From: a virus | Taxonomy: Duplodnaviria; Heunggongvirae; Uroviricota; Caudoviricetes | DNA: 27,428 nucleotides | IMG/VR virus record: IMGVR_UViG_2802429253_000015 | Reading direction: 5' to 3' (one strand) | Shown here: positions 3,200 to 13,877 of the stretch, piece after piece | Layout of the letters: every line of letters begins with the position of its first letter | Numbering within the stretch: position 1 is the first letter of the stretch | Made by a program: the position numbers and the translations under genes | The notes under the pieces: model-generated | What the model saw: the letters and a program-made list of their open reading frames with translations, nothing else | What the model was told of the DNA's origin: nothing | Databases searched by the model: none

Positions 3200-3448
3200 A
3201 TGAGCAAAAAAGAGAAGTTGAGGTGGCGTCTGAATCAGCTTCCAAAGGATTTTACATGGGATGAACTCGTGACGTTGCTTGGGCATTATGGTTTCGAAAT
3301 GCTTACCGGTTCAGGCTCAAGAAGGAAGTTTACCAATGCTAATGGAAGGCTTGTGGCTTTTCATTGCCCACATCCTGGCAATATTGTTAAAGGATATGTG
3401 CTTAAAGAAGTGAAAAATCTTTTGGATGAGATTGATAGTTATGAGTAA
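3200..3448 (+). CDS. hicA: HicA-family toxin (mRNA interferase), 82 aa
   Basis: Motifs ...LTGSGSRRKF... and ...VAFHCPHPGNIVKGYVLKEV... fit the HicA/YcfA pattern (G-S-H...HxP...G...K). The toxin gene precedes the antitoxin, as is characteristic of hicAB loci. Confidence 0.7.
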   Translation: MSKKEKLRWRLNQLPKDFTWDELVTLLGHYGFEMLTGSGSRRKFTNANGRLVAFHCPHPGNIVKGYVLKEVKNLLDEIDSYE

Positions 3449-3917
3449 TGTGCTGAGTTATAAAGGTTATTTTGGCAGCATTGAGGTTTCACTTGAAGAT
3501 AACATACTTCATGGGAAAATTCAGTGCGTAAACGATGTTGTAACCTACGAAGCGGAAACACTGGATGGGTTAAGGGCGGCGTTTGAAGAAGCTGTTACAG
3601 ATTATCTCGACACATGCAAGCAGTTAGGGAAATCTCCTGATAAACCAATGAGTGGTACTTTTAACATCAGAATTGGTCGCGATCTTCATAAGAAAGCGTT
3701 TTTGGCTGCAATGGCGGATAAGACGACGCTTAATGATTATGTGCGTAAAGCTATCGAAGAAAAGATTGCTGACAAAAAAGAAGTTCATTCTCATTCGGAA
3801 AGCGAAGAAACGACAGATACATTCGTTTGGGAAAAAGCATTCTCTTTTGGTTATGTCATTTCCCCTTCAGCAAGAACAAAAAAGAAAGAGGCTGGTGAGC
3901 GATGGATGCGTCACTGA
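3441..3917 (+). CDS. hicB: HicB-family antitoxin with C-terminal ribbon-helix-helix-like segment, 158 aa
   Basis: N-terminal SYKGYFGSIEVSLEDNILHGKI... is the typical HicB-like fold signature, followed by ...SGTFNIRIGRDLHKKAFLAAMADKTTLNDYVRKAIEEK (RHH-like). ATG 3441 overlaps the hicA stop (ATGAGTAA). An alternative start at 3426 is possible. Confidence 0.7.
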   Translation: MSNVLSYKGYFGSIEVSLEDNILHGKIQCVNDVVTYEAETLDGLRAAFEEAVTDYLDTCKQLGKSPDKPMSGTFNIRIGRDLHKKAFLAAMADKTTLNDYVRKAIEEKIADKKEVHSHSESEETTDTFVWEKAFSFGYVISPSARTKKKEAGERWMRH

Positions 3918-13067: not shown

Positions 13068-13129
13068 ATTAAGCCCGCTGCCCACCTTGGCTACAGGCAT
13101 TCGCTAGTGGCTGGGTCCTTTCCGGCGAT

Positions 13130-13331
13130 CCGGCAGGCTACGGGGCGTCAGACGCGCGGGTTTTCGCTATTTATGAAAATTTTCCGGTTTAAGGCGTTTC
13201 CGTTCTTCTTCGCCGTAACCTAATGTTTTTATTTAAAACACCCCCTGAAAAGAAAGGAAACGACAGGTGCTGAAAACGAGCTTTTTGGCCTCTGTCGTTT
13301 CCTTTCTCTGTTTTTGTCCGTGGAATGAACA
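13130..13331. other. cos: cos site of a lambda-type packaging system: cosN (about 13143-13154) and cosB with Nu1-binding R elements (R3 about 13192-13210; inverted R2/R1 about 13246-13311)
   Basis: Sequence ...ACGGGGCGTCAGACG-CGCGGGTTTTCGCTATTTATGAAAATTTTCCGGTTTAAGGCGTTTCCG... is near-collinear with the lambda left end as I recall it. Inverted R elements AAAGGAAACGACAG / CTGTCGTTTCCTTT are present. Nu1 starts about 190 bp from cosN, as in lambda. Confidence 0.8.
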
Positions 13332-13851
13332 ATGGAAGTCAACAAAAAGCAGCTGGCTGACATTTTCGGTGCGAGTATCCGTACCATTCAGAACTGGCAG
13401 GAGCAGGGAATGCCAGTTCTGCGAGGCGGTGGGAAGGGTAATGAGGTGCTTTATGACTCTGCCGCCGTCATAAAATGGTATGCCGAAAGGGATGCTGAAA
13501 TTGAGAACGAAAAGCTGCGCCGGGAGGTTGAAGAACTGCGGCAGGCCAGCGAGACAGATCTGCAGCCAGGGACTATTGAGTACGAACGCCATCGACTTAC
13601 GCGTGCGCAGGCCGACGCACAGGAGCTGAAAAATGCCAGAGACTCCGCTGAAGTGGTGGAAACCGCATTCTGTACTTTCGTGCTGTCGCGGATCGCAGGT
13701 GAAATTGCCAGTATTCTCGACGGGATCCCCCTGTCGGTGCAGCGGCGTTTTCCGGAACTGGAAAACCGACATGTTGATTTCCTGAAACGGGATATCATCA
13801 AAGCCATGAACAAAGCAGCCGCGCTGGATGAACTGATACCGGAGTTGCTGA

Positions 13852-13877
<26 letters not shown>
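13332..13877 (+). CDS. nu1: Terminase small subunit Nu1 (181 aa)
   Basis: MEVNKKQLADIFGASIRTIQNWQEQGMP... is the lambda Nu1 HTH N-terminus; same length as lambda gpNu1. Confidence 0.95.

Follow-up and report, generated by a model that had tools for sequence, protein, structure and literature searches.

Can a prophage whose terminase genes are nearly those of phage lambda be packaged when the sequence of its cohesive ends is not that of lambda, and by whose terminase? The question is raised by the cos region of a Caudoviricetes genome from IMG/VR (record IMGVR_UViG_2802429253_000015), of which a stretch of 27,428 nucleotides, hereafter the window, was analysed. Throughout, a lambda-like cos site is one with 12-nt 5' cohesive ends, in the sense of Feiss et al. 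2015.

Anatomy of the cos site and the adjacent terminase genes

Alignment of the lambda genome (NC_001416) to the window by megablast placed lambda base 1 opposite position 13143. The window has the features of a lambda-like cos, namely a cosQ at the proper distance, CG flanks, a cosB of the R3-I1-R2-R1 type and adjacent intact terminase genes of the Nu1/gpA type:

13113..13119, + strand: cosQ, GGGTCCT; the exact lambda heptamer, at offset -30 to -24 from cohesive-end base 1 as in lambda
13120..13140, + strand: cosQ-cosN spacer; of lambda length, with three substitutions (-17 T>C, -10 A>G, -5 T>C)
13141..13156, + strand: cosN, 16 bp, consisting of CG, the 12-bp cohesive-end sequence and CG; aligned to lambda, N15, phage 21 and HK225
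13143..13154, + strand: predicted 5' cohesive end GGGCGTCAGACG, of the alternative class GGGCG-K-M-A-G-R-C-G; lambda has GGGCGGCGACCT
13155..13191, + strand: cosN-to-R3 spacer (I2 region); identical to lambda bp 13-49
13192..13207, + strand: R3, the critical Nu1 binding site (lambda bp 50-65 according to PMC9026076); identical to lambda
13212..13246, + strand: R3-R2 interval, the counterpart of the lambda I1 (IHF) region; of lambda length, with five substitutions (bp 71, 73, 78, 97 and 102)
13247..13262, - strand: R2, an inverted R element; the 16-mer GAAAAGAAAGGAAACG, identical to lambda bp 105-120
13296..13311, + strand: R1; the 16-mer CGTTTCCTTTCTCTGT, identical to lambda bp 155-170, 1 bp nearer to R2 than in laboratory lambda
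13332..13877, + strand: Nu1 (small terminase subunit, TerS), 181 aa; 178 of 181 residues as in lambda Nu1; PF07471
13852..15777, + strand: A (large terminase subunit, TerL; ATPase and cos nuclease), 641 aa; 634 of 641 residues as in lambda gpA; PF05876 and PF20454

The window shares with lambda the cosQ element, the CG flanks, bp 13-70, all three R elements and the distances from cosN to R3 and from R3 to R2; it differs at five cohesive-end positions, by a few SNPs between R3 and R2, the first of them at bp 71, and in having one base fewer between R2 and R1. Both cosQ, the packaging-termination element (PMC4669245, PMC9026076), and the CG flanks are conserved among lambda-like phages (PMC4669245). 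In the window the CG dinucleotides at 13141-13142 and 13155-13156 lie 12 bp apart and flank both predicted nicks, which by alignment to lambda would fall between 13142 and 13143 on the top strand and between 13154 and 13155 on the bottom strand. The sequence-only reading that drew attention to this locus had described the flanks, the cosB R elements and the spacing as lambda-like, and this description is accurate save for the single missing base. A strict IHF consensus pattern, run on the window only and without lambda as a yardstick, found no match in the R3-R2 interval.

The missing base, lambda bp 138, is the only length difference between the two cos regions. An extra G is present at this position in the laboratory lambda reference (bp 133-143 compared with window 13275-13285), and the window lacks it, as do Kati, PhiR46_1, YDC107_1 and an Stx1a phage (alignment A1). 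Since natural relatives lack the base, it is the R2-R1 spacing of reference lambda that is atypical.

That the terminase genes are nearly identical to those of lambda had also been proposed, and the residue counts above confirm it. The first 74 residues of Nu1, including the wHTH DNA-binding domain, are the same as in lambda. The gpA proteins differ by N9D, S21A, M234L, V377L, A379V, I459V and D640N; all seven substitutions are conservative, and most of them are also found beside the lambda allele of cosN. At the nucleotide level A differs from its lambda counterpart by 7 nonsynonymous and 38 synonymous changes (dN/dS ~0.05). In the contig from which the window comes (GCA_002965125.1, PTSB01000035.1), Nu1, A, W, B, C, D, E, FI, FII, Z, U, V, G, T and H are all of full length, and all head and tail ORFs from Nu1 to H have lambda-like lengths. 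Elsewhere in the window (positions 1-654 and 3426-3917), the left edge holds a truncated ORF for an IS transposase, and the stretch upstream of the Q antiterminator includes a gene for a HicB-like antitoxin.

The cohesive end itself, GGGCGTCAGACG at 13143-13154, was compared without gaps to bases 1-12 of NC_001416, which read GGGCGGCGACCT, just as the initial reading had given them. Its claim of a divergent core is correct as well: five of the 12 positions mismatch (bp 6, 8, 9, 10 and 12), with bp 1-5 (GGGCG), 7 and 11 unchanged. The window therefore falls outside the group of phages with the identical end GGGCGGCGACCT, to which lambda, 21, 434 and phi80 belong; a sequence check showed the lambda allele in phage 21 and in an Enterobacter phage. 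The changes are clustered, since four to five of them within bp 6-12 compare with divergences of 3.9% over bp 13-190, 2.0% for Nu1 and 2.3% for A (Fisher p = 2e-5). The dS of Nu1 and A relative to lambda is 0.065-0.093, and the probability of at least five changes at seven neutral sites is ~2e-4, or ~3e-3 if four events are counted. The clustering in bp 6-12 exceeds both chance and synonymous divergence.

Natural variation in cosN's right half is frequent in lambda-like phages (Feiss et al. 2015, PMC4669245). N15 and HK225 carry GGGCGGCGTCCG, a right-half variant with T12G that differs from lambda at two positions (bp 9 and 12), which we confirmed in both sequences; phiD326 differs from lambda in the same way (PMC4669245). 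N15 is set apart from the window by a different, single-R cosB and a TerL that is only ~65% identical. Gifsy-1, known here from the description in PMC4669245, resembles the window in having multiple right-half changes within a lambda-like cos, at other positions (bp 8, 9 and 11). In that work the left half (bp 1-6) was described as being under selection and bp 7-12 were interpreted as unselected. A survey of natural cosN sequences (Vahanian et al. 2017), as represented in a paper that cites it, found these sites to be conserved in their first 4 bp and in the 2 bp that flank each nick, and the window has both of these features as so reported. Its bp 6 is T where lambda has G; bp 1-5 are alike, so the four-base rule holds, but bp 1-6 are not fully identical.

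The alternative cosN class and its carriers

An initial scan, in which the flanks were anchored and the 12-mer left free, was skewed to E. coli in its sampling; among the matches listed, the lambda allele occupied 126 of 133 sites and minor alleles the remainder. From the census an alternative class, GGGCG-K-M-A-G-R-C-G, was defined, with A8, G9, C11 and G12 constant, bp 6, 7 and 10 variable, and lambda-type cosQ and I2 flanks as part of the definition. GGGCGTCAGACG, with T6, C7 and A10, fits this class. Targeted scans found the class in more than 15 left-flank contexts across 71 IMG/VR contigs, and it was also found in 47 metagenome contigs. The alleles were distributed as follows:

All loci, including the 71 IMG/VR contigs: GGGCGGAAGGCG 53, GGGCGTCAGGCG 16, GGGCGGCAGACG 3, GGGCGTCAGACG 2, plus singletons
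The 47 metagenome contigs: GGGCGGAAGGCG 31, GGGCGTCAGGCG 9, GGGCGGCAGGCG 3, GGGCGGCAGACG 2, two other singletons

A probe able to seed only on T6-type alleles matched 69 of 5,426 complete E. coli genomes, and further complete E. coli genomes carry GGGCGGCAGACG. Only two deposited phages carry an allele of the class, in both cases GGGCGGAAGGCG; GGGCGTCAGGCG had no match among 50,697 deposited phages, although the same probe design did match E. coli genomes. Exact GGGCGTCAGACG was found in the window's own contig (L160) and in one other IMG/VR genome (L144), and was absent from the 50,697 deposited phages, from all 5,426 complete E. coli genomes and from the metagenome contigs searched. Within a widespread class it is a rare allele, confined to a single prophage lineage.

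Two commoner alleles are each one base away from GGGCGTCAGACG, namely GGGCGTCAGGCG (bp 10) and GGGCGGCAGACG (bp 6). T6 is present in the former and A10 in the latter, and at bp 6 and 10 all four combinations have been seen. Among near relatives that resemble the window in left flank, cosB and lambda-type gpA, three alleles occur, GGGCGGAAGGCG in L216 and L217, GGGCGTCAGGCG in L145 and GGGCGTCAGACG in the window, so the cosN core turns over even among nearly identical prophages. Position 6 is variable beyond the class: GGGCGACGACCT, a lambda-class allele with A at bp 6, occurs in the lambda-type E. coli locus L086 (IMG/VR) and is printed for PICI-G of Pluralibacter gergoviae (PMC9026076 Table S1), which means that G, T and A all occur naturally at bp 6, a position assigned to the conserved left half.

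The class is linked to its surroundings. C at lambda bp 71 was found in 47 of 52 alternative-class loci compared with 7 of 61 lambda-class loci, and C at bp 97 in 50 of 52 compared with 8 of 61; the window has this linked cosB haplotype (C71 and C97). In the spacer upstream of cosN, the -10G/-5C haplotype is enriched in the alternative class. The linkage of the cosB SNPs indicates that the class is a cos lineage with occasional recombinants. Three further IMG/VR loci (L139, L142 and L146) combine a satellite-type left flank (…GATGAAATTAGGGCC…) with a lambda-type cosB downstream of GGGCGTCAGGCG; judged by these flanks, they appear to be satellite/phage cos recombinants with a junction at or near cosN.

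Carriers of the class include lambda-type prophages, phage-plasmids of ~46 kb, the phage PhiR46_1 and PICI satellites. The extrachromosomal elements are YDC107_1 (CP025712) and the 46.9-kb plasmid pAH01-1. Both of them, as well as PhiR46_1 (PV340565), have GGGCGGAAGGCG and a lambda-type terminase. Their cos sites are of the same class as that of the window, with identical flanks, lambda-type cosB, Nu1 and gpA; they differ from it at bp 6, 7 and 10, which are G, A and G in GGGCGGAAGGCG and T, C and A in the window, GGGCGGAAGGCG being the common form and that of the window a rare one. The PhiR46_1 record names ECOR13 as the propagation host, and judging from these record metadata the phage was apparently propagated and would form plaques; a search for a publication on the origin of the PhiR phages gave none.

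The closest printed sequence is GGGCGGCAGACG, given for PICI-B and PICI-C by Murialdo & Feiss 2022 (PMC9026076 Table S1) and present also in the E. coli islands L150-L152. It agrees with the window at 11 of 12 bases, including A8, G9, A10, C11 and G12, and cosQ and the CG flanks are as in the window; bp 6 is G there and T in the window. These sites belong to satellites whose cosB is not of the lambda kind and which have an Rpp or a satellite TerS, whereas the window is a full prophage with a lambda cosB. Sequences of the alternative class were therefore already in the literature, though not discussed as a class; none of the four alternative 12-mers was found in a phage context in the searchable open-access literature. 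Nor did the core of the window coincide with a known functional lambdoid cosN, an outcome that the sequence-only reading had allowed for: the nearest printed sequence is 1 base away and the nearest in a deposited phage 3 bases away.

Window positions 13145-13155, which include the C following the cohesive end, form an 11-bp palindrome, GCGTCAGACGC (GCGTC-A-GACGC), centred on cohesive-end bp 8. Its symmetry partners include T6 and A10, the two bases that distinguish the window from sister alleles. The palindrome was considered as a shifted symmetry centre and judged probably coincidental, the commoner alleles of the class having only 4/5 arm matches.

Packaging and the origin of the variant end

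The locus is most likely the cos site of a lambda-type prophage that has the lambda packaging apparatus, differs only in the middle and right-hand bases of the cohesive end and would be packageable with lambda specificity. By analogy with lambda genetics, Nu1 would bind R3, R2 and R1 and place gpA on cosN; gpA would then nick at the two positions given above and leave 12-nt 5' ends, GGGCGTCAGACG and its complement, which would pair with one another upon injection. With its position set by Nu1 and cosB, gpA would read mainly the left-half bases and the CG flanks. As these are conserved in the window, the changed bases should have little effect on cutting. In lambda, mutations at bp 7-12 have minimal effect (C11G has none), G2C is severe, and TerL-lambda uses cosN-N15 at full yield (PMC4669245). 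That the site works is suggested by its conserved elements, by the recurrence of its class and by the lack of co-variation in the terminase. We infer efficient cleavage and tolerance of G6T, and expect its own terminase, and probably that of lambda as well, to be able to package the prophage. The combination of T6 and A10 might nevertheless carry a mild defect, as GGGCGTCAGACG is private to one lineage.

In line with the sequence-only reading, the ends are predicted to match those of lambda poorly. The predicted duplex energies of window with lambda ends are -8.3/-10.3 kcal/mol, compared with -17.4 kcal/mol for self-pairing in the window and -19.0 kcal/mol in lambda; for the lambda-N15 mismatch, known to be viable (PMC4669245), the prediction is -15.3 kcal/mol. 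On these energies, the ends of the window should self-anneal but pair poorly with lambda ends. An end mismatch of 2 bp is viable with a ~4-fold loss of yield (PMC4669245). The further suggestion that the divergent core bears on packaging specificity did not hold up, specificity in lambda-like phages being set by Nu1 and cosB, which here are those of lambda; going by this analogy, the variant ends leave it unaffected. The doubt that had been cast on whether the prophage is still packageable is likewise countered by the minimal effect of changes at bp 7-12, and by alleles of the same class standing beside a gpA that is 98.9-99.8% identical to that of lambda, in numerous prophages, in phage-plasmids and in the deposited phage with a listed propagation host.

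Could the nuclease have changed together with its site, so that the variant cosN is read by a gpA of altered specificity? The window and L145, both with T6 alleles, share the gpA substitutions S21A and V377L, which would be in keeping with such co-evolution. The two substitutions also occur with the lambda allele, however, and the alternative-class locus L216 lacks V377L. The gpA of the window is 99% that of lambda, none of its seven conservative changes is class-specific, and TerL-lambda is insensitive to right-half changes (PMC4669245). Comparison of 23 unique gpA sequences of the alternative class with 34 of the lambda class revealed no residue associated with the class and no position differing by more than 0.4 in frequency; co-variation of gpA or Nu1 with cosN class was also sought across all loci with complete gpA, and no linked residue was found. 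A new packaging specificity of this kind is largely refuted and highly improbable. The lack of gpA co-variation is accounted for if bp 7-12 are tolerant and TerL is positioned by Nu1 on cosB, which fits published lambda genetics. Decay of a cryptic prophage, with the changes in the 12-mer being damage at a poorly cut site of an element that can no longer be packaged, we regard as distinctly unlikely. It would accord with the restriction of the exact allele to one lineage, with G6T lying in the half reported to be under selection (PMC4669245) and with the IS transposase at the left edge, given which the prophage may be disrupted elsewhere. But decay would not have spared cosQ, the CG flanks, bp 1-5, bp 13-70 and R3, R2 and R1, all of which are perfect, nor does it agree with full-length genes from Nu1 through H and the low dN/dS of A; moreover, the changes match a recurrent allele class and not random hits, each of them being present in other elements. 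A sequencing or assembly artefact at a GC-rich site has next to no likelihood: rarity alone speaks for it, while the same 12-mer is present in L144, which over 14.9 kb departs from the window at 1 base, so that the allele is not such an error, and sister alleles that differ from it at one base recur across dozens of independent assemblies.

Two aspects of the pattern are not fully explained by bp 7-12 being unconstrained: the near-invariance of the lambda allele across very different phages, and a difference between the classes that is greater than synonymous divergence, along with the polymorphism within the alternative class. They could be explained by recombination having moved an old allele, by a multi-base event or by selection for compatible ends. 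If the last applied, the lambda 12-mer would be kept constant by end-matching, and the alternative class would be a second, partly isolated and diversifying group. This explanation, to which we give a small but real chance, draws on the near-monomorphism of the lambda allele among the matches listed and on its identity in phages as divergent as lambda, 21 and the Enterobacter phage, despite bp 7-12 being called mechanistically free. The excess of the between-class difference over synonymous divergence, the three alternative-class alleles in near-identical prophages and the linkage of the class to cosB SNPs in spite of existing recombinants point the same way, as do the lower yield from mismatched ends (PMC4669245) and the weak pairing predicted between window and lambda ends. 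The same pattern could also result from an old allele moved by recombination together with relaxed constraint, or by a single multi-base event; flank-anchored sampling over-represents E. coli, and Feiss et al. read bp 7-12 as unselected (PMC4669245). That the ends act as labels among elements with a lambda terminase, which must match whenever packaging, end-joining or recombination joins two elements, and that the allele of the window is a recombinant of GGGCGTCAGGCG and GGGCGGCAGACG, is similarly a rather unlikely proposal. Under it, bp 6, 7 and 10 of the alternative class would turn over fast, possibly via heteroduplex ends between elements with differing alleles. Heteroduplex cohesive ends survive until replication (PMC4669245) and are a plausible source of mosaic alleles such as that with T6 and A10.

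Returning to the preferred reading of a working lambda-type cos, the window adds one rare allele to a described phenomenon, the natural right-half variation of lambda-like cohesive ends, and a second major sticky-end class coexists with that of lambda beside essentially the same terminase. Annotation and terminus-prediction tools that seek the literal lambda 12-mer will miss such sites, and a prophage of this kind is not to be dismissed as unpackageable. Where a lambda end is combined with an end of this type, the ends of a hybrid chromosome or cosmid would match poorly, and a hybrid chromosome would cyclise poorly. The census can be used to ask whether the cohesive-end sequence is neutral, as is now assumed, or selected for compatibility.

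Satellite islands and other cos-bearing loci

The small islands that carry the alternative class adjoin yejO/narP or thiM and contain an Icd-like gene, a D5-type primase, SSB, a gpE-like capsid protein, a gpD-like decoration protein, AlpA, cos and a TerS of the Nu1 family; they are EcCICFT073-type PICIs as in Fillol-Salom et al. 2018. Four such islands (L150-L153, from E. coli EC43, RM11911, QML220601 and C21, respectively, with cos at ~6000 in each locus) have an alternative-class cosN and a non-lambda cosB, and cos is followed by a full-length Nu1-family TerS of 180 aa, not by a short Rpp. This TerS is 35% identical to lambda Nu1, its C-terminal half being better conserved. It was also considered as an Rpp and rejected, as it matched no PDB or Rpp sequence and is a full-length Nu1 homologue. 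Its sequence suggests that the islands may use, in a cos system, the 'own TerS' redirection strategy known from SaPIs. In L151 a fusion of a ClpP-like protease with the major capsid protein replaces the separate capsid and decoration genes.

The record of ev243 (LR597639; L155 and L156 are the record ends) starts with GGGCGGCGACCG-CGGGTTTTCGC and has 2 bp fewer at the cosN/I2 junction than lambda does. With its base 1 aligned to the cosN of the window, GGGCGGCGACCG was considered as an allele of the alternative class and rejected, since it is probably an artefact of assembly or trimming at the record end. Finally, a lambda cos fragment of ~400 bp, corresponding to lambda 48300-48502 plus 1-199 and 98.5-99.5% identical to it, is present in the assemblies of Raphidiopsis brookii D9 (L133), Aeromicrobium sp. 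(L134) and the Alicyclobacillus fastidiosus plasmid unnamed3 (L135). In these non-enteric assemblies the fragments are almost certainly leftover cosmid or fosmid vector.
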